A stretch of 64,000 nucleotides of DNA from an uncultured Pseudomonadales bacterium (GTDB lineage Bacteria; Pseudomonadota; Gammaproteobacteria; Pseudomonadales; Azotimanducaceae): NCBI GenBank assembly GCA_958296025.1, contig OY282430.1, positions 3,212,477 through 3,276,476 on the forward strand, in the 5' to 3' direction. The first letter of the stretch is position 1. Every line of letters starts with the position of its first letter. Of this stretch, positions 6,987 to 64,000 are shown one piece after another. The notes under the pieces are model-generated. The model was not told the DNA's origin and searched no databases. It saw only the letters and a list, made by a program, of their open reading frames with translations. Both the position numbers and the translations under genes were made by a program.

Positions 6987-9820
6987 GCCGCCAGCCTCTC
7001 ATTCAACTCAGCCAGCAACGGCTTGAGCTGGTCACCAAACAAGACATGGGCTCGACCTAGGCTGCCCTGTTGGCCGAACCAGCCGCTCTCGAAGTCCTCC
7101 GGCTCGATGGCGAGGCTGTTGGCGATGTGTTCGGCCATGCGGTCCAACCATTCGCGCTGTGGCGGGGTGAAGGCGTTGTCCGCGTCGCGTTCTTGCAGCC
7201 AAGCCGCGTAGCGTTCGCGCAAGCCGTCTCGGTACGGCACCAGCGTCAACCGGGGCATCAGGGCGCTGCGCACCAGATTCACCAAGTCAGCCAAGGGTTC
7301 GCCGCCGCGGCCCTGCACACGCTCCGGCGCGGTGGTCTCGAATGCGCGCCAAAGTTGCGTCGGCGTCGCGGCAACAGGTGGGCGGGCGATGGCGTCGCGC
7401 AAGCGGCGCAAGTCCGCCAGCGTCAGTTTGAGCGGGCGTGCGCCGGCGTAGATCACTTGGATGGCGGCCATCTCGTCCTTGTTAGCTTGCAGCCAGGCTT
7501 GGAAGTCCGTCACCGTCGTGCGGGCCTTCTCCACCGCCGCGGCGTCAAAGCCGGAGTGGAGCACTTCGTCAACGGTGTGGCGGTCTATCGTCTGCTCGCG
7601 CTGGCGCTGCATTTCAACAAGACGATGGCGCAGCGCAGGCTTGAGGAAGGGCGTCACCGCGTTTCGGGCAAGCTGCTGGGTCGCGGCTTCGATCTGCCCT
7701 GTTGTCGGTGCCGCAGTGTCGAACTGAGTCTTGGCGGCCTCGGCTTGCGCATCCGGCTCGCCGGTGCGGAGCAGGTCGCGGGCTAAGTCCGGCAGCGGCT
7801 TGTTGTTGGCCAGTTCGCGCAACTCGGCCAGTTCGGTGACGCCGAGCCGGCGTTGCAGGCGGGAGAGGCGGCTGGCCAAGGTGGCCAGCGCATCAGGATC
7901 CAGCCCGCCTCGGGCCACATAGTCCAACACTTGCTTGAGAGACTTGGAGGGCTGCCGGTTGAGCGTTCTCGAATCCGTTCGGTCCTGCTCGCAAACGCCT
8001 ACGGCATCCACGACGATGAAGCGGTCCTTCGCCTTGGCGCTGGGGCTCACGGCGCGGAGTTTGTCCGGCGAAATCACGCGTACGCCGCGGCCCTTCATCT
8101 GCTCGAAGAAGCCGGCGGACTTCACATTGCGCAAAAAGAACACGCACTCGATGGGCTTCACGTCCGTGCCCGTGGCGATCATGTCCACCGTCACTGCGAT
8201 GCGCGGGTGGTAGCTGTTGCGAAAGTTGGCGAGGAGCTCCTCCGGCGTCAGGTCAACCGTCTTTTTCCACTCGAAGGATTGGGCTTCGCCGCCATCTTCA
8301 TTCTTCACCGTGACGGGAACTTTGACGAAGCCGGTGCGGTAGGTGATCTTCTGGCAGAACTCGTTGCCTTCGGCGAACTCCTGCCGCGCCAGGCGCACGA
8401 TGTCGTCGGCGTGGGAGTCGTCCTTGGCGAAGATGAGCGTCTTCGGCACTTCTTTCCGGTCTGGGAATGCGGCGGGCAGCACGGCTTTCCGAAACTCACG
8501 CAGCACGGTGCGGATCTGGCTCACGGCCACCACGTCCCGGTCCACTTGGTTGGCCGTGTAGGTGAGGTCGTCCGCCAACAATTGCAGCCGTTCCTTCCGC
8601 GTCAGCTTGTCGCGCTGTTGCACATACACAGCGCCCGGCGCTGCCGGGATGGTGGCGCCTTCCGCGGTGATGCGGGTGGCGATGCGGTACACGTCGAAGT
8701 CCACGTTCACGCCATCCACCACAGCATCCTCGTGGCCGTACTGCATCACCAAATTCTGGTTGAAAAAGCCGAGTGTCTTGCCGGCGGGCGTCGCCGTGAG
8801 GCCAATCAGAAAGGCATCGAAGTAGAGCAGCACCTGGCTCCACAGGTCGTAGATGGAGCGGTGGCACTCGTCAATGACGATGAAGTCGAAGAACTCCGGC
8901 GGCAACTTGGCGTTGTAGGCGACCGTTGGCGGCTCGCCCTGCCACGGTGCAGCGTCAAAGGCGGAGTCGTCCTCGTTTTCCGCGTCGTATTCGGCATCGC
9001 CCTTGAGCATGGAGAACAGCCGTTGGATCGTGGTGACCACCACCTTCGCCGCCGGGTTGATGGCGTTGGCACCGAGGTGCTGCACGGTGTAGAGCTCGGG
9101 GAACTTGCGTGCGTCGTCCGGCGGGGCGAAGTTGGCGAACTCATCATGCGCCTGCCGGCCGAGGTTGTTGCGGTCCACCAAAAACAGGATGCGCTTGGCG
9201 TCCGCGTATTTCAGAAGGCGGTAGGCGATGTTCACGGCGGTGAAGGTCTTGCCGGAACCGGTGGCCATTTGCATCAACGCCCGCTGGTCCGCCTTGGTGA
9301 ACGACTCTTCAAGGCTGCGGATGGCGCGGGCCTGAGCGGACCACAGACGCGATGCGTCCAAAGGCGGCAGCGCCCTTAACCGGGTGCGTAAGGAACTGGT
9401 CTGCGCCACCCGCCCCGCCAGAGTATCGGGCCGCGGAAAGTTGAAAACCTCCCGACTGCGGGGCCTCGGGTCGCGCAGGTCGGTGAAGCGTGTCACGGCG
9501 CCATTGGATTCGAACAGAAAAGGCAAGGGCCGCTCATGAACGGCAAGGCCATCCGGCATTCCCTGGCTGTACTTTAGGGATTGCGGCTCCACCCCAGTCA
9601 AGGTGCCGGCCGCCTTGGCCTCCACAACGCCGACGGCCATGCGGTCAACGTACAGCATGTAGTCGGCGGTGCCGAAACCCTGCTTCAAGGGAAATTCGGC
9701 AACCGCCACGCCGCGCCCGGCACTTAGATCAAGGTCCTGGCGGCCTTGCACCAACCAACCCGCCGCCTCGAGATTGGCGTCTATGGACCGTCGCGCCTGC
9801 CCCTCGGGTGTGTCGGTCAC
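6983..9820 (-). CDS. hsdR: Type I restriction enzyme R subunit (helicase-nuclease)
   Basis: N-terminal nuclease region (ADYMLYVD...VVEAK), Walker A MATGSGKTF, DEAH box VIDECHRS, 945 aa. GTG start. Confidence 0.95.
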   Translation of the reverse strand: MTDTPEGQARRSIDANLEAAGWLVQGRQDLDLSAGRGVAVAEFPLKQGFGTADYMLYVDRMAVGVVEAKAAGTLTGVEPQSLKYSQGMPDGLAVHERPLPFLFESNGAVTRFTDLRDPRPRSREVFNFPRPDTLAGRVAQTSSLRTRLRALPPLDASRLWSAQARAIRSLEESFTKADQRALMQMATGSGKTFTAVNIAYRLLKYADAKRILFLVDRNNLGRQAHDEFANFAPPDDARKFPELYTVQHLGANAINPAAKVVVTTIQRLFSMLKGDAEYDAENEDDSAFDAAPWQGEPPTVAYNAKLPPEFFDFIVIDECHRSIYDLWSQVLLYFDAFLIGLTATPAGKTLGFFNQNLVMQYGHEDAVVDGVNVDFDVYRIATRITAEGATIPAAPGAVYVQQRDKLTRKERLQLLADDLTYTANQVDRDVVAVSQIRTVLREFRKAVLPAAFPDRKEVPKTLIFAKDDSHADDIVRLARQEFAEGNEFCQKITYRTGFVKVPVTVKNEDGGEAQSFEWKKTVDLTPEELLANFRNSYHPRIAVTVDMIATGTDVKPIECVFFLRNVKSAGFFEQMKGRGVRVISPDKLRAVSPSAKAKDRFIVVDAVGVCEQDRTDSRTLNRQPSKSLKQVLDYVARGGLDPDALATLASRLSRLQRRLGVTELAELRELANNKPLPDLARDLLRTGEPDAQAEAAKTQFDTAAPTTGQIEAATQQLARNAVTPFLKPALRHRLVEMQRQREQTIDRHTVDEVLHSGFDAAAVEKARTTVTDFQAWLQANKDEMAAIQVIYAGARPLKLTLADLRRLRDAIARPPVAATPTQLWRAFETTAPERVQGRGGEPLADLVNLVRSALMPRLTLVPYRDGLRERYAAWLQERDADNAFTPPQREWLDRMAEHIANSLAIEPEDFESGWFGQQGSLGRAHVLFGDQLKPLLAELNERLAA

Positions 9821-40388: not shown

Positions 40389-41522
40389 TCAGCCGGCATG
40401 GGCCGCGATATAGGCCATCAGGCTAGGGATGCCCGGCCGCCACAGGTCTTCCTCGTTCGGCGAGTTCCAGACATAGCCCAATTCGGCTAAGCCGTCACGA
40501 TGCTCATCCACATTCTGGGCGGACGCATCGGCCGGCAAGGCCGCGGCGATGGCAGCGTCAAGTTCATGCTCCCTGAGCTGTCGCCTGGCGTCGAAGGCCC
40601 CAGCCAGTTGCGCCGCCGTGCGGAGCAGCCCCAAACGCTTCAACTCCTCGCGCCGATCGTCGTAGTAGGCTGACCGCTCCATGTCGAAGCGCGGTTTCGC
40701 CTTGGCAACCAAGGCTTCATCGATCCGGGTTGCCCCGCTTTCGTGCGCCATCACCCACAGGGCCGCGCCCCAAAGTTGCAGGAAATAGGGGTAACACTGA
40801 CTTTCCCCAACCACTTGCCGCAAAGCGCCACTGTCGAAGGAGATCGGCGGTTTTTGCTCCGCCAGCGGCTGCGCCAACGCTTGGGCGGACGCCACCTCGT
40901 CAAGCAAGCCGATTCCCAGCTTTTGACCCCGGCTCCAAAAAGTGGCCGACATGCCGTTCAAGTGCGTCTGCAACCCAGGGGTGCCGGCCATGACGAGCAT
41001 AAACGGCGCTTCGGCGCTAACCGACTGGCTGGCGTTGAGCAGGACTTGACCCACATCCTCCCTCAGCGTATGGGCTTCGTCGAGCAGCAAAACCAGAGGT
41101 CGCCGCTGGCAGCGCACAGCCAACAACCGGGTTAAGGAGCTAGGACGGTTGCCTAGCTTCCAGCCAAGCCGCCCGATGCCGATGGCGAAGGACAGGGCAG
41201 CCGGGCGCAACGAGTTGAATCGACTAGGCGGCGCCAATAGAGTGGCCAACTCGTCGAGACTCGGTATTTCAGCGGGCGTTAGCCAAACCACGTCCACCTT
41301 TTGCTTCGCCGCCTCGAGTTGATGTTGGAACCAACGCAGCAGGGCTGTTTTGCCGTTGCCTCGGGGGCCGGACAAAACCAAGTTTCGGGGTGCGCCTTTG
41401 CCGGCCTTTAGGTAAGCCAGCAAGGCGTTCAATGCGCTTTGCTCGGTGCCCCTGCCGGCCAAACAGGGCGGTAATTGACCGTGGCCCGGCACAAACGGAT
41501 TGACGGCGGATGATGCGCTCAT
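40389..41522 (-). CDS. ORC/Cdc6-like AAA ATPase (ATPase_2-type)
   Basis: FVPGHGQLPPCLAGRGTEQ..., Walker A LSGPRGNGKTALL, Walker B LVLLLDEAH, YPYFLQLWG lid motif. Confidence 0.75.
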   Translation of the reverse strand: MSASSAVNPFVPGHGQLPPCLAGRGTEQSALNALLAYLKAGKGAPRNLVLSGPRGNGKTALLRWFQHQLEAAKQKVDVVWLTPAEIPSLDELATLLAPPSRFNSLRPAALSFAIGIGRLGWKLGNRPSSLTRLLAVRCQRRPLVLLLDEAHTLREDVGQVLLNASQSVSAEAPFMLVMAGTPGLQTHLNGMSATFWSRGQKLGIGLLDEVASAQALAQPLAEQKPPISFDSGALRQVVGESQCYPYFLQLWGAALWVMAHESGATRIDEALVAKAKPRFDMERSAYYDDRREELKRLGLLRTAAQLAGAFDARRQLREHELDAAIAAALPADASAQNVDEHRDGLAELGYVWNSPNEEDLWRPGIPSLMAYIAAHAG

Positions 41523-54289: not shown

Positions 54290-54997
54290 ATGGGCATCCG
54301 CCGCAAGGTCATTCCGCTGATGCGGGAACACAACGGCTGCGAGCCGGAGTTCGAGGCGGCGGAAGACTACTTCCGATGGCGGGCCTATGTTGTGATTGAC
54401 TATCCGAAGCTTGCCGGCGACCATGCGCTCATGCGCCGGCTGCTGCCGGACAACCGCCAGGCGGCGCTGATCCGCTTGGAGAGCGCCTCCGGCGACGACG
54501 TGCCTAGGCTGCTGGCGGCGGCGTTCCAGCGGTGGAGCGGGCCGGAGTCAGGGGGGCTGCGTCGGGGCTTCCACGCCCGGGCCGAGCATTTGCTGCGGCG
54601 GCGGGGATTGGCGCTGCCGCCGCTGGCGGACTACGAACGGATGTTGGCGCAGGAGAAAGGAGCAAGAGAGATGACGACGTTAATGGAGGCGAGGCTGCAG
54701 GAATGGCACGACAACGCCATTGCGCAGGGTGTGCGGCAAGGTGTGCAACAGGGGATGCAGCAAGGGGTGCGGCAAGGCTTACAGCAGGGGGTGCGGCAAG
54801 GCGTCCACCAAGGCCAAACGGACCTGCTGCGCCGCCAAGCGGAGCGGCGCTTTGACGCGGAAACCGCCCGGCGGCTGTCGGCCCTGCTGGACGGCGCCGA
54901 CGCGGACCGCTTGATTGAGGTGGGCGATTGGATTGTCGAGTGCAGCAGCGGCGACGAACTGCTGGAGCGGCTCCGCCAAGCCGGCGGGTTGGCCTAG
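54290..54997 (+). pseudogene. 5'-truncated rpn paralog lacking the PD-(D/E)XK core; retains the middle region and DUF4351-type tail
   Basis: Aligns by eye to the intact Rpn from VIPLMREHNG (= LPVVLYNGG) to the tail. Rpn-like sequence (RVRILRDYG = LRILEYT) continues upstream of the ATG to a stop at 54221. The catalytic EFQ strand and everything before it are missing. Confidence 0.55.
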
Positions 54998-55125
54998 CGA
55001 CTCCCCGTTAATAGGTCCGCGACCACCTCGCTGCCGCATGCGTCAAAACGACCGCGACGTCCTTAAGACGTGCTCGCCGATGTAGCTGAGGATCAGGTTG
55101 GTCGATATGGGGGCGAATTCCCCGC
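54615..55125. repeat. Direct repeat A (~510 bp): rpn 3' part, spacer, and the 3' end of a convergent unknown gene
   Basis: Collinear with 56947-57455, with only scattered mismatches. Confidence 0.9.
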
Positions 55126-55197
55126 GAAGGCGAACCTTGTCAATGGGGAAGGGAGTGGCGGTTGTGGCCTGCATACGGAGTTGTACACTGCGTTCTC

Positions 55198-55947
55198 ATG
55201 AAACAACCTTCACGATTCAGCGCCGCTGAGCGTCCGCGAGACTCATCCATCGTCTTAAGGCCGCTTTGGGAGCGCACTGAGGTCATTCCCATGCGGCATC
55301 CACCTGTTGAACCCCAAGACGGGCGGTGGGACTTGAGCGACACCGAAAACCAGTTGCTGCCGGATGGATACTGGGGCATTTGGGTGCCGCCCACCACTGT
55401 GGAACGGCATGTCACTGGGCTGGAGATGCTAAACCTTCCCGGCGAGCCTTGCGGCGATTGGCGAGGGCATGGGGTATGGCTGTCGCGCAACTTTGCCGAC
55501 GACATGGGGCGCCGTCTGTGCGTCACCTTGTCCAAGGCGGGGCCCTTGTCCGTCCATGCGTTGTTGGGTGCGCAGGGCGTCGCGGACATCCGCCCGCGCT
55601 TGGCGCTGGCCGGGCATCCCGCCGCCCGCCGCAGCGTTCCCGTATGGGGGGCGTCACATGCCCGGGCGGCTTTGGAGTGGGCTTGGGATGCGTTAGTGGA
55701 GACCGCGGAGGGAAGTGCGCCCGACGGCAGTGAGTTGGCGGAATGGCTGTCCGATGCGCAGGCCGATGAGTTGACGCACATGGCGCATAGGTTAGTCCGG
55801 GCGCATCCCGACCCGGACATCGCCGCCGTTTGGCTGCAATGGGTGGAGCAGTCGTTGCATCCTCCAGACCGTCGCGGGGCGGCGGCGGTCGGCGTCCAAC
55901 CGCGCAGGATCAATTTGCCACCTCGAAAAACTGAGGTTGTCACATGA
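55198..55947 (+). CDS. Hypothetical protein, upstream partner of the AbiEii-like gene
   Basis: ORF with ATG 55198 (TTG 55162 also possible). Its stop overlaps the next start (ATGA at 55944-55947). No HTH or other motif recognised. Confidence 0.55.
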   Translation: MKQPSRFSAAERPRDSSIVLRPLWERTEVIPMRHPPVEPQDGRWDLSDTENQLLPDGYWGIWVPPTTVERHVTGLEMLNLPGEPCGDWRGHGVWLSRNFADDMGRRLCVTLSKAGPLSVHALLGAQGVADIRPRLALAGHPAARRSVPVWGASHARAALEWAWDALVETAEGSAPDGSELAEWLSDAQADELTHMAHRLVRAHPDPDIAAVWLQWVEQSLHPPDRRGAAAVGVQPRRINLPPRKTEVVT

Positions 55948-56921
55948 CGGCGGCGATGGACTTGCCGTCACTGCTGCCGCCCGTACCAGAGTCGCCTGAC
56001 GGCCGGGACGCATGGTGGGAAGGCGTCCTGCATCGGGCCATTGCGCTGGCGCAGCACCAATTGGAAGGGCAAGGCTCGCCCGCCATCCTGCTCGGCGGCA
56101 CCGCTGCCCGCCTATGCTACGGATTGTCGAGGCCATCCCAGGACATCGATTTGGACCTGCTTCACCAAGATGGGGATGTGGCGTCAGCAATCAGCACAGG
56201 CTTCACGCAAGCCCAAAAGGAGCTGGCTGCGTCGGTGCATTGGCCAAAGCGCCGCCATGGACGGGGCTTTGAGGTGCGGTTGTCGCATCCTCGCTTTGGC
56301 GGGCGCACCTGCTCAGTGGACACTAGAGTGTTGCGCGGCGATGCTGCCGAGACGGCGGAACATCAGCTGTCCATATTGGCGGCGGGCCTGCGAGTGTATC
56401 GGCCCGATGAACTGGTGCGTCAAAAAATGGCGCTGGCAATCGATACCAAAGAGCGTCGGCGGGGGCGGGACCGATATGACCTGGCGTGGTGGCTGACGAA
56501 TCGAATGGAGTGCGCGGCACCCAACGACCGCATTGCACTGAGCCATGCACTGTCCGAAAGCTCCATCTTGCAAGAGGCTTGGGACCGTTCCCATCGTAAG
56601 GACGCCATCCTGAGCCGCGTTCCTCCCCAAGCGGTGCAGGCGGCGCTGGATGCCGCCTTGGCGTCCGACCCAATCGTGCTGCTGAGCCGTCATCCGCAAG
56701 GCTCCGTCACCATCGACGCATCCATGCAAGAGGGGTGCCGTCTTCTCTGGCGGGACGAGCCGCATGCCACGAAGCGTTTGTTGCGGCAGTTCCCTTCCGC
56801 ACAAAGGTGCATTCGCCATCTGCAGGCGATTGGCTGGTGCGACGAGGGGGATGCGAATTCGTTGCTGCGTCAATCCCTAGGGCAGGCGGGCACACCCTTA
56901 GTTGCGCCGTCGCCTTCATAA
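55944..56921 (+). CDS. Nucleotidyltransferase of the AbiEii/AbiGii toxin family
   Basis: LLGGTAARLCYGLSRPSQDIDLDL (GGTA...S.DIDL NTase motif) and KMALAIDTKERRRGRDRYDLAWWL (K...R.RD.YDL). Confidence 0.7.
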   Translation: MTAAMDLPSLLPPVPESPDGRDAWWEGVLHRAIALAQHQLEGQGSPAILLGGTAARLCYGLSRPSQDIDLDLLHQDGDVASAISTGFTQAQKELAASVHWPKRRHGRGFEVRLSHPRFGGRTCSVDTRVLRGDAAETAEHQLSILAAGLRVYRPDELVRQKMALAIDTKERRRGRDRYDLAWWLTNRMECAAPNDRIALSHALSESSILQEAWDRSHRKDAILSRVPPQAVQAALDAALASDPIVLLSRHPQGSVTIDASMQEGCRLLWRDEPHATKRLLRQFPSAQRCIRHLQAIGWCDEGDANSLLRQSLGQAGTPLVAPSPS

Positions 56922-56946
56922 AGCCCGGCACCCAACTACTGGCCCG

Positions 56947-57455
56947 GCCGCCGCTAGCGGACTACGAACGGATGTTGGCGCAGGAGAAAGGAGCAAGAGA
57001 GATGACGACGTTGATGGAGGCGAGGCTGCAGGAATGGCACGACAACGCCATCGCGCAGGGGGTGCGGCAAGGTGTGCAGCAAGGCTTGCAGCAGGGAGTG
57101 CGGCAAGGCTTACAGCAGGGGGTGCGGCAAGGCGTCCACCAAGGCCAAGCGGACCTGCTGCGCCGCCAAGCGGAGCGGCGCTTTGACGCGGAAACCGCCA
57201 GGCGGCTGTCGGCCCTGCTGGAAGGCGCCGACGCGGACCGCTTGATTGAGGTGGGCGACTGGATTGTCGAGTGCGGCAGCGGCAACGAACTGCTGGAGCG
57301 GCTCCGCCAAGCCAGCGGGTTGGTCTAGGCACTGCCTCTCAATCAGGCCGCGACCACCCCACTGTCGCATCCGCGTCAAAACGACCGCGGCCTACCCAAG
57401 ACTTGCTCTCCGATGGAGCTGAGGATCAGGTTGGTGGAGATGCGGGCGGTCCGGT
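56947..57455. repeat. Direct repeat B (~510 bp), partner of 54615-55125
   Basis: See repeat A. Confidence 0.9.
56972..57328 (+). pseudogene. Free-standing rpn 3' fragment (DUF4351-type tail only, 118 codons from an internal ATG)
   Basis: MLAQEKGAREMTTLMEARLQEWHDNAIAQGVRQG...RLIEVGDWIVECGSGNELLERLRQASGLV. About 95% identical to the tail of 54290..54997. Confidence 0.5.
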
Positions 57456-57504
57456 AGAGGCGGATTTCGCGGAAAATGGCCAAGATCGGCCAAAAAAGAC
57501 CTTG

Positions 57505-57696
57505 ATGCCGGCTCGGGTCAACGAAATCGTCCGCGGCCGTCGCGGCACTACCGCTGGAACGGCGTTGCGCCTTGCCCGGTACTTCAACACCGACGCGCAA
57601 AGCTGGATGAACCTTCAGAGTCAGTATGAACTGGCACTTGCGGCCCGGGAGGCCGACGACTCGCTGGCGGCAATCCGGCCGCTGCAAGTAGCCTAA
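57505..57696 (+). pseudogene. higA: HigA-type (XRE HTH) antitoxin, N-terminally degraded
   Basis: ARVNEIVRGRRGTTAGTALRLARYFNTDAQSWMNLQSQYELALAA matches the C-terminal two-thirds of HigA. The expected PxHPGEIL...LGxSQ part is scrambled, and no higB is present. Confidence 0.5.
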
Positions 57697-57879: not shown

Positions 57880-58530
57880 ATGACCTTGAAAAAGCTACTG
57901 GCCAATTTGCTGCTTGCCACCGTGCTGCCGGCTTTAGGCCATGCTCAAACCGTGGACATTTGCGGCAGAACGCCGCAAGTGCGCGACGCCATCATGGGGG
58001 ACCTTGGCGCGGAAGACTGCGCCGCCGTGGATTCCGCACAGATGGCCGAATTGCGACTATTTATATTTAGTCGAAACAGGTTGACGGCCTTGCCGGCGGG
58101 CGTGTCCGAAGGCCTGACCAACTTGAACACACTGGAGTTGACGAACAACCGCCTTGTGGGATCGAGCCGGAATGACCCATTGTTTGCCATGCTTCCCAGC
58201 GAGGTTGACTCGGAATCGGAGTGGCAAACCGAAGAGCCGGATGGGCTAGAACCTCCGGCAACACGCCTTGCCAACACCGGGGCGAACGCCGCAAGCGTGA
58301 GCACTGAAGGTGTCGACGGCCAAGGCAACACCGCCGGGCCGGTCACCTTGACGCTGGCCGCCCCAGCCAAGCGGAAAACGACCCTTCCGCCCCTCCCGGA
58401 ATCCGCCCTCGCCCGACTTCCCGGGTCCCAAAAACACAGGATCGAACGCAACAGCTTCGCCAGCAAACGACTCTATAATCACCCCGGCGATCCCATACAT
58501 TCAATTGACTTGAATGCGAAACTCACCTAG
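57880..58530 (+). CDS. Secreted protein with two leucine-rich repeats and a low-complexity C-terminus
   Basis: GGAGA RBS, signal peptide MTLKKLLANLLLATVLPALGHA, LRR units NRLTALPAGVSEGLTNLNTLELTNNRL. Confidence 0.55.
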   Translation: MTLKKLLANLLLATVLPALGHAQTVDICGRTPQVRDAIMGDLGAEDCAAVDSAQMAELRLFIFSRNRLTALPAGVSEGLTNLNTLELTNNRLVGSSRNDPLFAMLPSEVDSESEWQTEEPDGLEPPATRLANTGANAASVSTEGVDGQGNTAGPVTLTLAAPAKRKTTLPPLPESALARLPGSQKHRIERNSFASKRLYNHPGDPIHSIDLNAKLT

Positions 58531-58577
58531 AGTCCACCAGTGCGCCATTTTCCAACCAGCTTGCAAGGAGGCCGCTA

Positions 58578-59933
58578 ATGTCTTCGACCCATACGACAGC
58601 GACGAAAACCCTAAAAAGGCATTTTCTTATACCCATGTGTTGCGTATTTCTTCTCGCTGCATGTGTTGAAAATCCCGAAATCAAATCTGCAAGGGCCAGC
58701 TTGGAGCTTGCAGAAATGAAGGGTGATCTTGACGGCATGTTTCTGTCACTACGGCAGCTAGTAGAACTTGGTGATGAAGCAGCAGCAAATAGCTTGCCTT
58801 TGGTGCGCACAGCCATTGCAGAGCGCGAACGCATGCTTCAATCCCTCGCCGACCACGACCACGAAGGAGCAATCCAGGCAGCAGAGGAGCTGTTGAATAT
58901 AGTTCCGAAGCATAAAGAGGGTCTAAAGGTTCTTCGGGAGTCTGGGCAGATATTTTTCTACCTTAGAGAAGCGAAGCACCTCGTGGTCTCGATCTTTGAT
59001 CAAAGCAATTCTCAAGCAGTTACTATAGAGCCCTTAATGGTTGATGAGTCGCTGCCTGAGGAACAACGTCATGCTTTTATTGTAACGACAATCCAGACGC
59101 TTCTCGAAGAATTGGGCTACTACCACGGCGAAGTCGACGGTGTGGCGGGCCCCGATACGGAAAATGCGCTTGAAGCCTTCCAAAAGGAGCAAAATGAGGA
59201 GGAGACTTTCGACCTTTCTGTGGAAACTGCAAACATGCTGAAGTCCGAACATAGGAAGAGGGAGATGGAAGATAAGGATATCGAAAAGCGGTTTTACGCC
59301 TTTTCTCGTTCACGCAAACTCGTTGACTTAGCAAAAAAACTTGATCCAAACTTCCCGAACGCTATCGAATTTGGAGAGATTATTGACCGTGGACATTCGA
59401 GCCTAGTGTATATAGAGGCTCAAAGGATTATAGCGAAAGGTGCCTTGATGATGGTGAAGGCTGAAATGGTCCATTCCTTAATATCATCGACTCTAGGCAT
59501 CGCTGCTTCTTCTCCTTACGGATCTGTCCAAGATACTTGGAGAAGAATTTCTCCACTTGTTGATGAAATAAGGCAGCCACTAAAGATGGACAAGGAAAAA
59601 TTGGACAATGGTCTGGCTCTTCTCTCCACTTACGAGTCTGGTAGATCCCTTGAATTTGTATCAAATCTCAAGGAATACGTCGTGACAGTCCATGTAGCGA
59701 CAATGGCCTTTTTGGAGCCAAGTGGAAGTCTGGTCGACTTTCGACAAGCAGCAAGCGACGCTACTAGCGAGTATTCACGCGTCAGTGCTAGACTCAATGG
59801 GTCCATGCCTAGTGAAACTCAGATACAGGAGGACTATGAAGGTCTAGCCGCGATCCTTAGTAACCACGCAGTAGTTTCTGACCCGAGAACTGACCAAATC
59901 ATCGCTCGCCATGAAGGGCTTTATACTCTGTGA
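58578..59933 (+). CDS. Lipoprotein with a peptidoglycan-binding (PG_binding_1-like) domain
   Basis: Lipobox VFLLAAC; IQTLLEELGYYHGEVDGVAGPDTENALEAFQ. AT-rich codon usage unlike the core genes. Confidence 0.6.
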   Translation: MSSTHTTATKTLKRHFLIPMCCVFLLAACVENPEIKSARASLELAEMKGDLDGMFLSLRQLVELGDEAAANSLPLVRTAIAERERMLQSLADHDHEGAIQAAEELLNIVPKHKEGLKVLRESGQIFFYLREAKHLVVSIFDQSNSQAVTIEPLMVDESLPEEQRHAFIVTTIQTLLEELGYYHGEVDGVAGPDTENALEAFQKEQNEEETFDLSVETANMLKSEHRKREMEDKDIEKRFYAFSRSRKLVDLAKKLDPNFPNAIEFGEIIDRGHSSLVYIEAQRIIAKGALMMVKAEMVHSLISSTLGIAASSPYGSVQDTWRRISPLVDEIRQPLKMDKEKLDNGLALLSTYESGRSLEFVSNLKEYVVTVHVATMAFLEPSGSLVDFRQAASDATSEYSRVSARLNGSMPSETQIQEDYEGLAAILSNHAVVSDPRTDQIIARHEGLYTL

Positions 59934-59988
59934 GGAATTTTGCAAAATCCTTCTACTTCCGTGGAGTGCGAAGAGGGCGAGAGGTCGT

Positions 59989-60306
59989 ATGAAGGCTAAG
60001 GCATGGAATAACGGAAGATGGTATCCAACCGGAGCAGGGTATGGTATCAAGATATCTGCTGCGGATCGTGATAGGTATTTTCGCCGATGTTGGCCTAACG
60101 TGGACATTGAGCTGCCAAACGGCAACCAAGTCACAGTTAATACCAGTAAGAGGTCCTTCTGGGACGGAACATGCAGGGAGCTAATTCACAAGGATATTGG
60201 TCGATGGTTGATCGATAGCGGTAGAGCCCGATGGCTCCCTGGAAGTTCGCCGGAGTTTCAACTGGTTCCTATGCAAATGAGATGCTTTGTTTTAAAAATG
60301 GGCTAA
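59989..60306 (+). CDS. Small hypothetical protein (105 aa)
   Basis: MKAKAWNNGRWYPTGAGYGIKISAADRDRYF...SFWDGTCRELIHKDIGRWL. Pattern recalled from conserved hypothetical proteins. No function known to me. Confidence 0.45.
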   Translation: MKAKAWNNGRWYPTGAGYGIKISAADRDRYFRRCWPNVDIELPNGNQVTVNTSKRSFWDGTCRELIHKDIGRWLIDSGRARWLPGSSPEFQLVPMQMRCFVLKMG

Positions 60307-60343
60307 AAGCTAGTGTTCTGTTCCATAAATAACTAATATAACT

Positions 60344-60547
60344 ATGAGCGTGTTTAATCCAGAGAATACGCTTATGTCTCGCGATCGATCCACTGTTCCG
60401 ATTGTCCTCGACAATGACGAAAAACACGAATTGCTCGGTATCGTACGCTCCCGCTCACTGCCTCACGCAGTCTTGCGGAAGCGCTTCTGGCAACCAACCA
60501 CATTCTCGCTGGGCAAATTGCCGGCATCGAATTCGAGCAACATGTGA
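60344..60547 (+). pseudogene. Possible IS630-type transposase N-terminal (HTH) fragment
   Basis: PIVLDNDEKHELLGIVRSRSLPHA resembles the start of IS630-family transposases. Similarity is lost afterwards. Confidence 0.3.
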
Positions 60548-60798
60548 GGAACCTAACCAATGCGAAATCGAAAGATTCACTGGGATGGCTGGTTTACCAT
60601 AAGTTGCCCGATATCATTCGGGTACGCTGTTCGGGTCAGAATCAAAGTGAGGAAATTATCAAAAAGTGCAAGATGGCGCACGACGTCCGAAATCAAGCGA
60701 TTCATTTGGATCCTGTGCCAGAAGCGGAGGCCGTCGGGCAGCTACTCGAAGCCATGAAGCTGGTTGGACGGATGAGAATACCTATATCCCAACGGTAA
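60460..60798 (+). pseudogene. HEPN/DUF4145-like remnant (Rx4H motif), 5' end lost
   Basis: In the frame of ORF 60544..60798: ...AEALLATNHILAGQIAGIEFEQHVRNL...CKMAHDVRNQAIHLDP...AVGQLLEAMKLV. The RNQAIH motif fits the HEPN Rx4-6H signature. Only a GTG start at 60544. Confidence 0.3.
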
Positions 60799-60964
60799 AA
60801 GGTTGCCAAAAACCCAACTTCCCCAACGATGAAACCGAGGAAATAGCGGTGCCTTGGGCAGGTACTCTTAGGAATATAAGCGTAGATGAACTCGGCGCTG
60901 AACAGGGGATTAGAGAGGCGATGCTGGTAGAGCGATTTAGCCTGTATTGAGCATTTGCCGCTGG

Positions 60965-62086
60965 TTAGCTGTCCAAGCCCTTGTAAACATCCCGGCGAAG
61001 GCCGAACCGCTCCAAAACAACCCTATGTTCGTGCTTGTCCAGCCAATAGATTATGCGGTAGTCGCCAAGGCGATAGCGCCATCTGCGCCGCTGTCCCTGG
61101 AGCCGCTTAATCGGTTTCCGGGGTGTTGTCGGGTCGCGGCATATGCTCAAAGTCGCCTGACTTATCCTCGTGAACTCACCCATATTCCCATACACCTCAC
61201 TTTGGAAGCGACTGGTGTATGCAAGCTGCCAAGGAAGGCTGTCCGGGCCGATGTCCTGTATTGGCATGCTCTCCGGCGCTTGTTCCGCAACTTCAACCTC
61301 AGCGCTCTCCGAGGGCAACCCCGCCACAGTTTCGCGTAGCGACCGCAGGATTACGGTGCCAAGCTGGTGTTCCGATGGCAAATCGCAGATCCCGTCTTCG
61401 GACAGGCCAAGCAGTTCCGTGGCCACGCACTTTCCGAAGGCAGTGAGCGCATAGTCGCCAGCGGCCATCGCATCGAAGCAGTGCAGCACGTCCGTTTTCG
61501 TCGCCGCGACCTTCTCCCAATCGATCAACCGCCGATAGGCGTCGATAGCAGTCAAGTCGATGATGCGGGCAATTCCGAATCGCTTGATGTAGTCGCACAG
61601 AACATCCGTAAGCAAGGCGTCCTTCCGCCACAGCTCCGCAACCGGCGGTGCCATCGGACAGCTATACAGTTGAATTGGCTCCGTTGGCCGCAGCAGACCG
61701 TACAGACCGGAGATGAACAGGGTGTGGTGTTCGGATTCCGCCAGCCTTTGCTTGCCTTCCGCACCCAACGCCTGGAAGAACCGGCCCTCGTAGCGGTCAA
61801 GCGTCGGCAGATAGGTGGCGGTGTGCCGGCCGCCAAGGTCCGGACCACTGGTGAGTTCCTGGTTGAATGCAAGCTCCGAGACGGGGGCACCCTGCCAACA
61901 AAAATCAGAGGCGCTTTTCACGAGCTGGAAAATTCTTGCTCGCCGCTTGAGAAGCCGGTCTCCTAGGGAGTTCGGCAAAACGGAAGTGATCGCCTGCCCT
62001 GCATCGTACTCGGCGCTGCCGCCTGGCGCCTTGGTGAGTGAGCAGTTGGTCAGGAACAGCACCATGCTCGATGGCTGGTATGGCAT
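60965..62086 (-). CDS. Fusion protein: YaaA/DUF328-DUF6884-like N-terminal module + acidic linker + RelE/ParE-fold C-terminal domain
   Basis: GGAGG RBS 7 nt before ATG 62086. LFLTNCSLTK..., RYEGRFFQAL, LFISGLYGLLRPTEPIQLY (YaaA-type signature). C-terminal WQLAYTSRF...IKRLQGQRRRWRYRLGDYRIIYWLDKHEHRVVLERFGLRRDVY (RelE/ParE signature). Confidence 0.7.
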   Translation of the reverse strand: MPYQPSSMVLFLTNCSLTKAPGGSAEYDAGQAITSVLPNSLGDRLLKRRARIFQLVKSASDFCWQGAPVSELAFNQELTSGPDLGGRHTATYLPTLDRYEGRFFQALGAEGKQRLAESEHHTLFISGLYGLLRPTEPIQLYSCPMAPPVAELWRKDALLTDVLCDYIKRFGIARIIDLTAIDAYRRLIDWEKVAATKTDVLHCFDAMAAGDYALTAFGKCVATELLGLSEDGICDLPSEHQLGTVILRSLRETVAGLPSESAEVEVAEQAPESMPIQDIGPDSLPWQLAYTSRFQSEVYGNMGEFTRISQATLSICRDPTTPRKPIKRLQGQRRRWRYRLGDYRIIYWLDKHEHRVVLERFGLRRDVYKGLDS

Positions 62087-62143
62087 GAGGACGCCTCCAA
62101 CAGGAATTGAGAGCCTTGCATTTTACCTCGCGTCCAACGAGGA

Positions 62144-62887
62144 CTATACCCATGCCTCCACCAGCGCCTCCATCCTGTCCAGAAAGGCGACGTCGTAGTC
62201 CTCTTCAACGTGGTTGTTGTTCCACAGCCCGGAGGCGCGAACCCGCGGCCGGTCGCTGCAAGCGCCCAGCCAACGACCGGAGGGCGCATCGGCACCGACG
62301 CTTCGCGCATGGCTGAGCAAGGCGATGGCGTTGCGCTCGATGACCCCCCGGTCGCTGTGCGGGCTTGGATTGTCGGGGATGTTCAACCACAGAAACGGCA
62401 TCCGCCCGATGTGGGCGCTGACGCGGCGCTCCAAGTCCGCTTCCGCGTCTTTCACCGCTACGCGAGTCATGCCTAGTTTGCGGGCCGCGGCACCGGGGTC
62501 GCCGCCAATGCCCCAAGACCGCGGCGGTGGGCAATCGCCGCGCTCGGCCAGCGCCCTGCCCACCAACAGCCGGAAGATGGAGCCGCGGTGGTGGCCGCCC
62601 CCGCTCTTGGCGCTGCCGCGATGCTGGGAAAGCCGTGCCCACAGCGTTGTCCTTGAACGGTCTGTCAGCGCATGGGTGCCAACCCGCACCAAGCGGTCAC
62701 CGCGGCCCGACAAACTGCGCTGCTCGCCCTCTTCAAAGAAAAAATAGACGCCGCGTTGCGGCCAATCCATGCGGCCATCGCAGACGCCGAGGGTGCGGCG
62801 CCCGCCAGCCCGATCTTCAATGCGGGCCAGAAGATCGTAGAAGCGTATGGTGTCGGCAACGCGGCTCGGTGAGGGCTTTGTGGTCAA
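62144..62887 (-). CDS. GIY-YIG-like nuclease-family protein
   Basis: RGVYFFFEEGE ... LVRVGTHA ... LWARLSQHRG ... SIFRLLVG ... GVIERNAIALLS follows the GIY / YIG / R / E-N order. TTG start overlaps the upstream stop (TTGA). Confidence 0.6.
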   Translation of the reverse strand: MTTKPSPSRVADTIRFYDLLARIEDRAGGRRTLGVCDGRMDWPQRGVYFFFEEGEQRSLSGRGDRLVRVGTHALTDRSRTTLWARLSQHRGSAKSGGGHHRGSIFRLLVGRALAERGDCPPPRSWGIGGDPGAAARKLGMTRVAVKDAEADLERRVSAHIGRMPFLWLNIPDNPSPHSDRGVIERNAIALLSHARSVGADAPSGRWLGACSDRPRVRASGLWNNNHVEEDYDVAFLDRMEALVEAWV

Positions 62888-63687
62888 CGCTTAATCCGGT
62901 CGTTTAGCCAAGCCAACTGTTCGCCGATCTTCAGGCCTTCCATTGGCACCTCAACCCGAACGCCGCGCTTGCGCATTTCCGGGACCAAGAACTCGCGGTA
63001 GCGCTGGCCGGCAAAAACCACGACGGTTTGCACACCACCCAAATGGCACGCGAGCGCCTGCATAACGTCACTCGCCCAAGCCCGCCGCTCGGCCACCCGC
63101 ATCGTGTTCAGCGTCTTCTCGTAGGGAGCGATCTCCTTGTCGGGATGCACCAAACCATGCTTTGCGGAAAGGATGAACCAAGGCCAGCCTTGGGCTTCAA
63201 CCAATTTGCGCACCTTGGCAAACCAAACCGATATGTAAAGATCCCTAGCCAGCGCCTGATGAGATTGCTTCGTCCAAACGCAGGAAACAAGGCAGAGATC
63301 TGCGGCCGGCAGCTTGGCGTTCCTTGCGGACGGTGCCTTCGGGCGCGGGGTCGCTACGGTTTTCGGTGGCGGTCGGTCGGGCTGTTGCTTCTCTGCGCAC
63401 ATCTTGATCAAGGTTTTAGACGAACCCTTCCGCTTGTAGTGGAACCTGGTTGTAGTGCTTTCAGGGGGTCCCGTTCGGTCCAAGTACTCAAGCCCTACAT
63501 GCTCAGCTTCCCGTTGGAACTTCCGACCTTCAAGGGCGCTGCATACGGCTCGAGTCCTGTTGACAAGACCCATGCTGCGCACGACATCCCCGGTGCAAAT
63601 GGAAAGCGTAGCCTCATTGGCATCTAGAAAGGGCCGAACATAGCGTTCCATCACATGCTGTCGGATTCTGTCTGCTTGCGACGCCAT
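62884..63687 (-). CDS. DUF6884-domain protein with a ~90-aa N-terminal domain of unknown function
   Basis: AAGGGAG RBS before ATG 63687. C-terminal LCLVSCVWTKQ...ARDLYISVWF...WFILSAKHGLVHPDKEIAPYEKTL...FAGQRY...LKIGEQLAWL fits the DUF6884 pattern. Confidence 0.65.
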   Translation of the reverse strand: MASQADRIRQHVMERYVRPFLDANEATLSICTGDVVRSMGLVNRTRAVCSALEGRKFQREAEHVGLEYLDRTGPPESTTTRFHYKRKGSSKTLIKMCAEKQQPDRPPPKTVATPRPKAPSARNAKLPAADLCLVSCVWTKQSHQALARDLYISVWFAKVRKLVEAQGWPWFILSAKHGLVHPDKEIAPYEKTLNTMRVAERRAWASDVMQALACHLGGVQTVVVFAGQRYREFLVPEMRKRGVRVEVPMEGLKIGEQLAWLNDRIKR

Positions 63688-63774
63688 TTCGTGCTCCCTT
63701 GCGGCGGGCTTAGGTCTGCCGGCACTTATATCCAATTTGGCGATGGTTGTCTAAACGGCGTCAAGCCTCGGACT

Positions 63775-63900
63775 GCGCCGGCCGCCCGGTTGGCCCGCAA
63801 CCAGCCTCGCCATCGCATCCGTCTCAAAACGACCGCGACATCCCCAAAACGTGCTCGCCGATGTAGCTTAGGATCAGGTTGGTGGAGATGGGGGCGATGA
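63775..63900. repeat. Third copy (3' part only) of the rpn-derived repeat
   Basis: ...ccgcaaccagcctcgccatcgcatccgtctcaaaacgaccgcgacatccccaaaacgtgctcgccgatgtagcttaggatcaggttggtggagatggggg matches 55017-55125 and 57347-57450. Confidence 0.8.
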
Positions 63901-64000
63901 TCCCTCAATCTGAGGAGCGCCGGCCCTCCGCCGGCATGATGCGCCGCATGAATGCATCGAAAAGGGGTGCTGTGAAGGCGGTGTCGCCGTGGCTTGGGCT

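Follow-up and report, generated by a model that had tools for sequence, protein, structure and literature searches.

A PDC-M57 gene pair with an adjoining YaaA-like–RelE fusion gene: a candidate modular conflict locus in an uncultured Pseudomonadales bacterium

Cami1, a CARF-RelE protein, is a ribosome-dependent RNase of type III CRISPR signalling. The PDC-x entries of PADLOC are unpublished candidate systems, among them the two-gene candidate PDC-M57. DpdC, a member of DUF328/PF03883, hydrolyses preQ0 to ADG on DNA. DUF6884 and YaaA proteins share a DNA-binding cleft, and the DUF6884 member YfjM binds lesion DNA and has a predicted base-flipping pocket (PMC11701544). Here, a 64,000-nt stretch of contig OY282430.1 from an uncultured Pseudomonadales bacterium (assembly GCA_958296025.1, positions 3,212,477 to 3,276,476), hereafter the window, was analysed with respect to a three-gene operon at 60965-63687. 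Genes 1 and 2 encode a DUF6884 protein and a putative GIY-YIG-like endonuclease and match PDC-M57, and gene 3 encodes a YaaA-like domain fused to a RelE-fold domain. We interpret the operon as a modular conflict locus in which the PDC-M57 pair is accompanied by an optional sensor-RelE effector; this account of function and mechanism is tentative, and its probability appears to fall somewhat short of even. Comparison loci are designated by L numbers and homologous proteins by P numbers, and the features of the operon are as follows.

62884-63687, minus strand: gene 1, 267 aa, DUF6884 protein (Pfam DUF6884 1.3e-49; PADLOC PDC-M57A 5.3e-38)
63694-63700, minus strand: Shine-Dalgarno sequence of gene 1, AAGGGAG, 6 nt upstream of the ATG at 63687 (sequence)
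63424-63687, minus strand: conserved N-terminal domain of gene 1, ~88 aa (homologue alignment)
About 62902-63294, minus strand: DUF6884 'cantaloupe-fold' domain of gene 1 (Pfam; CxxxK and LSAxxG motifs)
62144-62887, minus strand: gene 2, 247 aa, TTG start, putative GIY-YIG-like endonuclease (PF26468 'GIY_YIG_3' label; PADLOC PDC-M57B 5.6e-78)
62094-62098, minus strand: Shine-Dalgarno sequence of gene 3, GGAGG, preceding the ATG at 62086 (sequence)
60965-62086, minus strand: gene 3, the YaaA-like–RelE fusion
61334-62086, minus strand: YaaA-like (DUF328/cantaloupe) domain of gene 3, aa 1-251 (Pfam H2O2_YaaD 7.9e-9; Foldseek 5caj)
61238-61333, minus strand: disordered linker of gene 3, aa 252-283 (AlphaFold2 [AF2] predicted local distance difference test [pLDDT] <50), with a recombination breakpoint at ~61302
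60965-61237, minus strand: RelE-fold domain of gene 3, aa 284-373 (family profile, Foldseek and alignment to E. coli RelE)

Gene structure and domain architecture

The compact arrangement described in an earlier note made from the letters alone (the sequence-only reading), with three minus-strand genes, their ribosome-binding sites, an overlap and a spacer, was borne out by direct reading of the sequence. The TTG start of gene 2 and the TGA stop of gene 1 overlap as TTGA (62884-62887), and a 57-nt spacer lies between genes 2 and 3. The longest open reading frame (ORF) of gene 1 begins further upstream, with a TTG at 63735; the ATG at 63687 is the start used by homologues and by a 267-aa database entry that is 100% identical, and the starts of all three genes are consistent with those of homologues. 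Each of the three proteins has hundreds to thousands of full-length homologues, which indicates real genes. A search of 60700-64000 revealed no sigma-70-like promoter; the terminator-like hairpins within the operon all lie inside coding sequence at a frequency not above chance, and there is one weak hairpin downstream of gene 3. These signals are consistent with a single transcript. Searches for Rfam families and tRNAs at the locus yielded none.

The protein encoded by gene 3 comprises two well-folded domains with a disordered linker between them (AF2 model, pLDDT 85.7). Its N-terminal domain scores 35.8 bits against PF03883 (cut-off 29.6), over model positions 72-178 only, and Foldseek aligned it with E. 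coli YaaA (5caj; E 3.8e-7, TM-score 0.52); together with the Pfam match (7.9e-9), this upholds the YaaA-like domain called in the sequence-only reading. The predicted pocket is intact, with C15-S-x-x-K19, R98-Y99-x-G101, S126-G-L-Y-G130, E136, Q139 and Y141 all falling in invariant alignment columns. Gene 3 is not orthologous to the peroxide-stress protein YaaA, the best NCBIfam equivalog scoring 18.5 bits against cut-offs of 204-392.

The RelE/ParE pattern noticed earlier at the C-terminus of gene 3 likewise proved correct at both profile and structure level. The gene 3 family profile matched solved RelE toxins over the whole toxin length (8.6e-8 for Rv2866/RelG, and 2.4e-6, 3e-6 and 3.6e-6 for others), including RelE1, archaeal RelE (aRelE) and YoeB-like toxins. 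Foldseek comparison of the C-terminal domain with many solved RelE-family toxins gave TM-scores of 0.74-0.80 with a probability of 1.0 and root-mean-square deviations of 2.2-3.3, and Cami1 (PDB 8phj) was among the structural matches of gene 3. The catalytic residues of E. coli RelE, K52, K54, R61, R81 and Y87, align to R335, R337, R344, R364 and Y368 of gene 3; R344 is invariant in the family, and R364 and Y368 are present in at least 90% of its sequences. Against Pfam ParE_toxin (PF05016, cut-off 23), the full protein scored 19.2 bits and the C-terminal domain alone 22.8 bits, just below the cut-off; a precomputed PF05016 annotation is attached to many gene 3 homologues. PADLOC contains no model that gene 3 matches. 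No antitoxin-like gene or other small recurrent neighbour was found in 30 gene-3 loci, where only genes 1 and 2 recur, in agreement with the earlier remark that an antitoxin-like gene is missing beside it. In some gene-3 relatives, a HicA toxin domain is appended after RelE (P0048 and P0050, 428-431 aa; L003 8001-9287).

Gene 1 is a DUF6884 protein, as read from the sequence at the outset, with a score of 168 bits against DUF6884 (PF21818; gathering cut-off 30) and the motifs C136-x3-K140 and L173-S-A-x-x-G178, which are invariant in the family alignment. CxxxK and LSAxxG motifs have been defined for DUF6884, a YaaA-related 'cantaloupe-fold' family (PMC11701544). The module signature proposed to be common to genes 1 and 3 is also present, gene 3 carrying the motif pair NCSLTK and ISGLYG. 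In addition, gene 1 gives a weak PADLOC DpdC match (5e-6). A low-complexity, Pro-rich linker lies between the N-terminal and DUF6884 domains, and the N-terminal domain is kept in most of the 678 homologues. Profile searches with this domain and the linker found no match in Pfam or PDB. DUF7662, which is found in some relatives, was considered for the N-terminal domain and showed no detectable similarity to it. The N-terminal domain and linker were also considered as a RelB-like antitoxin of gene 3, a candidate that was rejected because the same domain occurs in PDC-M57 loci without gene 3.

Gene 2 belongs to a family with the conserved core wP.RGVYFFFE ... RVVRVGTHA ... TLW.RL..HRG ... GNHR.S.FR ... 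LWL ... IERN ... SGLWN, in which the conserved residues of the window protein are G46-V-Y48, R68-V-G70, R85, H89, H100-R101, E184-R-N186 and W222-N223. This core fits the GIY-YIG motif order (GVY...RVG...R...E-N), with the second-motif Tyr replaced by the invariant R68. Every gene 2 homologue listed carries the precomputed annotation PF26468 'GIY_YIG_3'; gene 2 itself had no match in the Pfam copy searched, which did not contain PF26468. The AF2 model (pLDDT 87.6) has the secondary-structure order beta-beta-alpha-alpha...beta-alpha, which is compatible with GIY-YIG. The family profile gave no match among PDB sequences, and no GIY-YIG Pfam match appeared in a permissive scan of 35 gene-2 members or in 52 long members. 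The GIY-YIG assignment of the sequence-only reading thus stands in its motif order and agrees with the Pfam family name, but the fold was not recovered by Foldseek, hhalign or profile searches. Since every independent fold or profile test was non-significant, 'GIY-YIG-like nuclease' is used here for gene 2 as a curated label combined with a motif-level resemblance, and the fold is not claimed independently.

Association of the three genes across genomes

The adjacent, overlapping genes 1 and 2 match PDC-M57A and PDC-M57B of PADLOC-DB v2 with nearly full model coverage, and the gene 2 family comprises 2,711 representative clusters at 50% identity. A gene-2-anchored sample of 80 metagenome loci contained 56 with enough flank for the upstream count, and in 36 of these the gene 2 homologue is directly preceded by a gene-1-type DUF6884 gene. 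Most of the remaining gene-2 loci show a 'type B' arrangement, in which the gene 2 homologue is followed immediately downstream by a divergent DUF6884 ORF (L082, L086, L089, L091, L094, L096, L097, L099 and L111); this ORF encodes 220-250 aa with VIQCAAxK and ILSAGWG motifs (Pfam DUF6884 3e-5). In L093, the downstream partner instead combines a MarR-like winged helix-turn-helix with a YaaA-like domain. In the set of 52 long gene-2-family proteins, DUF6884 shares the chain in 29 cases and a YaaA domain in 4 (33/52 together), and DUF7662 is fused to 7 of the 52 and also occurs in one gene-1 relative (P0307). Given this frequent adjacency and frequent single-chain fusion, the cantaloupe-fold protein and the gene 2 protein almost certainly form one functional unit. 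On a Deinococcus megaplasmid, the pair is annotated as 'DUF6884 domain-containing protein' and 'hypothetical protein'.

The gene 3 family comprises at least 235 clusters. Its 29 reference-genome loci all belong to metagenome-assembled genomes (MAGs) of uncultured organisms, mostly Gamma- and Alphaproteobacteria, and one genome (OY282353) carries three gene-3 copies. Gene-3-like genes were also seen on archaeal-binned contigs (L022, a Heimdallarchaeota MAG, and L026, a Methanobacteriota MAG), which suggests horizontal transfer or binning contamination; the tblastn survey gave no RelE-domain match for L026. Neither plasmid records nor 2.9 M viral contigs contain the gene 3 protein, and a megablast of the whole locus against plasmids found nothing.

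In 6 of 25 complete reference loci, genes 1 and 2 adjoin gene 3, and in the other 19 (~75%) gene 3 is solo. Beyond this sample, the trio also occurs in L002, L122 and the window. Three layouts were found, with gaps of <400 bp.

Gene 1, gene 2, gene 3 in the same direction: the window, L005, L021, L024 and L122
Gene 3 convergent with gene 2 and gene 1: L002, L009 and L011, with a gene-2 remnant beside gene 3 in L004
Gene 3 followed by gene 1 and gene 2: L017

From the other side, 29 gene-2 loci offer a downstream flank of 1.3 kb or more, and none of them contains a YaaA-RelE gene. The survey of co-occurrence that the sequence-only reading had called for therefore gave a divided answer, with genes 1 and 2 strongly paired and gene 3 joined to them in 6/25 loci only. 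Its single three-gene system is upheld in the tight packing and in the adjacency seen in about a quarter of loci, but gene 3 is not a core component (0/29 gene-2 loci).

A profile of the gene 3 N-terminal domain gives 46-47 bits with the YaaA-like domains that the gene-2-family proteins P0422, P0473, P0386 and P0407 carry as C-terminal fusions, and equally with the downstream partner in L093; the same profile scores 19 bits on E. coli YaaA and <1 bit on the DUF6884 domain of gene 1. Within the tested set, the closest relatives of this domain are thus YaaA-like domains fused to gene-2-family proteins. Comparison of the window by blastn with L005, the most closely related locus, revealed 91% nucleotide identity over 61302-63780, a 2.5-kb block spanning gene 1, gene 2 and residues 1-261 of gene 3. 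The similarity stops in the gene 3 linker (window 61302; L005 10785), beyond which the flanks differ, and the two RelE domains share 47% amino-acid identity with nucleotides that cannot be aligned. Compared with L005, recombination inside the linker has given gene 3 a different RelE module. Such a swap at the linker and the appended HicA domain are typical of exchangeable effectors.

In L120, a DUF7662 protein (8210-9031, minus strand) is convergent with a solo gene-3 homologue and has the C-terminus PGVYAVVV...VAYVGMAKKDLRRRW, with a canonical-looking GIY-YIG motif; its match to Pfam GIY_YIG_2 (E 0.017) is below threshold. The fusion of the N-domain subfamily to gene-2 proteins, the co-conserved 2.5-kb block and this DUF7662 neighbour argue that the link of gene 3 to genes 1 and 2 is non-random and functional rather than accidental, but optional.

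The sequence-only reading had offered the operon as a candidate undescribed system. Genes 1 and 2 are already listed as the PDC-M57A/B candidate, but neither the three-gene composition nor the YaaA-like–RelE fusion family was found in a literature search, which also found no mention of PDC-M57, PF26468 or DUF7662.

Genomic neighbourhood

The operon lies in a variable region, among defence-related and repeated sequences, with the following features in the window.

55162-55947, plus strand: AbiEi, of an abortive-infection/type IV toxin-antitoxin (TA) pair
55944-56921, plus strand: AbiEii, overlapping AbiEi
63792-63897, plus strand: upstream copy of a ~100-nt repeat, just upstream of gene 1
57365-57448, plus strand: downstream copy of the ~100-nt repeat, 87% identical over 84 nt to 63813-63896
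54373-55115 and 56940-57478: two paralogous units of ~540 bp, whose 3' flank is the ~100-nt repeat
About 58500-60900: low-GC insert (47% against ~62%), encoding a 451-aa protein with peptidoglycan-binding domains (58578-59933)

The AbiEi/AbiEii pair is ~4 kb from the operon and has a counterpart in L005 at 94.6% nucleotide identity. The copy of the ~100-nt repeat just upstream of gene 1 is its third in the window; this copy and the one at 57365-57448 bracket a 6.4-kb block containing the operon, and the repeat is multi-copy in L005 also (about 14677, 16970 and 20138). The ORFs of the paralogous units (54290-54997 and 56735-57328) give weak PADLOC 'putative invertase' matches, and the second contains a 12-nt tandem repeat (57055-57145). 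An interpretation of the ~100-nt repeats as attC sites of integron cassettes was rejected, as they represent the 3' flank of the ~540-bp paralogous unit and the genes of the block are of mixed orientation. The segment 58361-61302 is without counterpart in L005 and covers the low-GC insert and the RelE-coding end of gene 3 (60965-61301). In L122, the trio sits beside housekeeping genes that in the window lie at 45-53 kb, so this site is a conserved hot spot.

Around the gene-3 homologues, the genes within 4 kb and at 6-10 kb of 21 reference loci were compared with PADLOC models. Strong matches included BrxL, PglZ (1.5e-294), MADS, DRT reverse transcriptases, type II/III methyltransferases, AbiE, LmuB, AriA and Cas1, and the defence systems matched within 10 kb include BREX, restriction-modification (R-M), Lamassu and PARIS. 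As these strong matches lie within 10 kb, the gene-3 family sits in large defence islands. TA or NACHT genes adjoin gene 3 in L001-L003. The earlier claim of defence-type surroundings is therefore supported by AbiE in the window and by BREX, MADS, DRT, R-M and AbiE genes around homologues, but not by the 'IS and HEPN debris' (insertion-sequence and HEPN-domain remnants) reported at 60344-60798, where no profile match was obtained.

Several further genes were observed near the operon or its homologues. L119, on the same contig as L015, has a solo gene-3 homologue in a region resembling an integrative and conjugative element (ICE), with a TraG/type IV secretion system coupling protein, AlpA, SSB and a DDE transposase. 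A gene of 325-355 aa without Pfam match lies convergent just downstream of gene 3 in L001 (9353-10330, minus strand) and L122 (8207-9274, minus strand), the two products being 40% identical. In the window, 40389-41522 (minus strand) encodes a 377-aa AAA_16/STAND-like ATPase with a weak nSTAND_NTPase5 match, ~20 kb from the operon. The product of 57271-57696 (plus strand) resembles a HigA-type helix-turn-helix antitoxin in its C-terminal part (Pfam HTH_3, E 0.012 only), and no intact toxin partner was seen.

Proposed function and relation to known systems

In the proposed explanation, the cantaloupe-fold protein of gene 1 presumably works by binding nucleic acid and flipping out one base. It is read as a base-flipping reader because its superfamily includes YaaA, the lesion-binding YfjM and DpdC. 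The reader would recognise a feature of foreign or abnormal DNA, such as a modified base, a lesion or a hybrid, and would then guide the putative nuclease of gene 2 to cut that DNA. In the gene 3 protein, the YaaA-like sensor may keep RelE in check without a separate antitoxin; binding of a ligand would free RelE, which would cut mRNA on the ribosome and stop translation, leading to abortive infection or dormancy. The lack of an antitoxin fits such a self-contained sensor-effector, and so do the flexibility of the linker and the exchange of C-terminal modules. Gene 3, presumably co-transcribed with genes 1 and 2 in this genome, is probably not a core subunit but adds an optional second layer.

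A number of results weigh against this explanation. About 75% of gene-3 loci contain gene 3 without the pair, and the sampled PDC-M57 loci lack gene 3, so its functional coupling to genes 1 and 2 is optional at best. The AF2 model of gene 3 (predicted TM-score 0.67) shows no confident inter-domain contact that would explain autoinhibition. For gene 2, Foldseek searches of its AF2 model against PDB and BFVD returned nothing at E <= 0.001. Profiles built from 35 sequences and from 120 representatives were compared by hhalign with E. coli UvrC-N, I-TevI, YhbQ and a three-sequence GIY profile; E-values against UvrC, I-TevI and YhbQ ranged from 0.058 to 0.9, all non-significant, and the best local alignment, which places GVY, RVG and R85 of gene 2 on GVY, YVG and Arg of UvrC, also had a non-significant E of 0.15-0.24. 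The defence islands show no contrast between genes within 4 kb and those at 6-10 kb, both being defence-rich, and the comparison has no genome-wide background. The literature search found no experimental work on PDC-M57 or the gene-3 family. YaaA and YfjM are tied to oxidative stress and DNA lesions (PMC11701544), and a repair or stress role would fit equally well.

Such a role, in which the cantaloupe proteins recognise endogenous lesions (abasic sites, ribonucleotides or oxidised bases), gene 2 incises the DNA beside them much as UvrC, Cho or YhbQ do, and gene 3 stops translation for as long as the damage lasts, is quite improbable in our estimate. In its favour, YaaA is a DNA-binding protein of peroxide stress, the GIY-YIG protein YhbQ of E. 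coli is annotated as a DNA damage response nuclease, the operon lies among housekeeping genes in L122, and pull-downs with abasic and RNA-base lesions recovered YfjM (PMC11701544). However, a damage-response module accords poorly with the patchy distribution of these genes, their carriage on megaplasmids and in ICE-like regions, the swapping of effector modules among relatives, the several paralogues in one genome (three gene-3 copies in OY282353) and the defence-rich neighbourhoods, and the 18 bits of gene 3 lie far under the NCBIfam equivalog thresholds for YaaA (204-392). An R-M-like arrangement, in which the cantaloupe domains would modify a DNA base to mark self, as DpdC converts preQ0-DNA to ADG-DNA, and gene 2 would restrict unmarked DNA, appears very unlikely. 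DpdC is a member of DUF328/PF03883, gene 1 has its weak PADLOC DpdC match (5e-6), and the invariant Cys, Lys, Ser, Tyr and Glu residues look catalytic, but no DpdA/TGT, DpdB (ParB-like) or deazaguanine-synthesis gene was present among 20 large ORFs scanned at 40-60 kb, and the RelE fusion would be left unexplained. A pair that is so often a single chain also resembles a reader-nuclease more than a modification-restriction pair.

In another alternative, the two modules merely reside side by side: gene 3 would be an autonomous, cis-neutralised RelE serving addiction or abortive infection, brought beside PDC-M57 through common recombination hot spots. Gene 3 is solo in 19 of the 25 sampled loci and PDC-M57 loci occur without it, its orientation relative to genes 1 and 2 differs among loci, and the block in the window is bracketed by repeats and adjoins the low-GC insert. 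On the other hand, it is very unlikely that chance placed the genes within 400 bp of one another in roughly one locus in four, and the adjacency is kept across three layouts; the gene 3 N-domain subfamily is covalently fused to gene-2-family proteins, one solo homologue adjoins another protein with a GIY-YIG-like motif, and the block of gene 1, gene 2 and the gene 3 N-domain is conserved as a whole, with 91% nucleotide identity. Co-residence alone therefore strikes us as unlikely, and a modular locus of PDC-M57 with an optional sensor-RelE effector is preferred.

A broader and more speculative extension of the modular reading, which we consider doubtful, is that the YaaA/DUF6884 fold constitutes an unrecognised sensor class in prokaryotic immunity, in which genes 1-2 and gene 3 respond to a shared signal, gene 2 cutting first and the RelE of gene 3 aborting on failure. 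Gene 3 would then sense either a modified or damaged base that has been flipped out or an unusual nucleic acid that arises during infection, and would allosterically license RelE. The pairing of DUF6884 and GIY_YIG_3 is extremely common (2,711 clusters at 50% identity), and in the YaaA-like–RelE fusion this sensor fold is coupled to an output that can be read as translation arrest or toxicity, which offers a handle on what cantaloupe domains recognise. If the defence function is true, the locus would provide a new sensor class and, beside Cami1, another antitoxin-free, sensor-fused RelE effector, as well as a natural case of modular layering that combines a nuclease arm with an abortive arm.

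Compared with known systems, genes 1 and 2 resemble PDC-M57 in matching both models and in being adjacent and translationally coupled, whereas PDC-M57 is a two-gene candidate with no third gene. The gene 2 protein has the GVY...(R/Y)VG...R...E-N order of UvrC, I-TevI, YhbQ and Eco29kI, but differs from GIY-YIG nucleases in its invariant Arg in place of the second Tyr, its long insertions and its lack of significant matches to solved members. The N-terminal domain of gene 3 has the same fold and motif pattern as YaaA/DUF328 (5caj) and DpdC; unlike in the Dpd 7-deazaguanine system, no dpd genes are nearby, and the resemblance of gene 1 to DpdC is limited to the weak match. The C-terminal domain of gene 3 shares the RelE fold and catalytic-type residues with type II RelBE/ParDE toxins, but it is fused to a 250-aa domain, with no RelB- or ParD-like gene adjacent or conserved. 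Like Cami1, gene 3 joins a sensor domain and a RelE-fold effector in one chain without a separate antitoxin, but its sensor is YaaA-like instead of CARF and it has no CRISPR or cyclic-oligoadenylate context, so the likeness is one of architecture only. New here is the YaaA-like–RelE fusion as an optional add-on to the catalogued PDC-M57 pair, related to sensor-fused RelE effectors.

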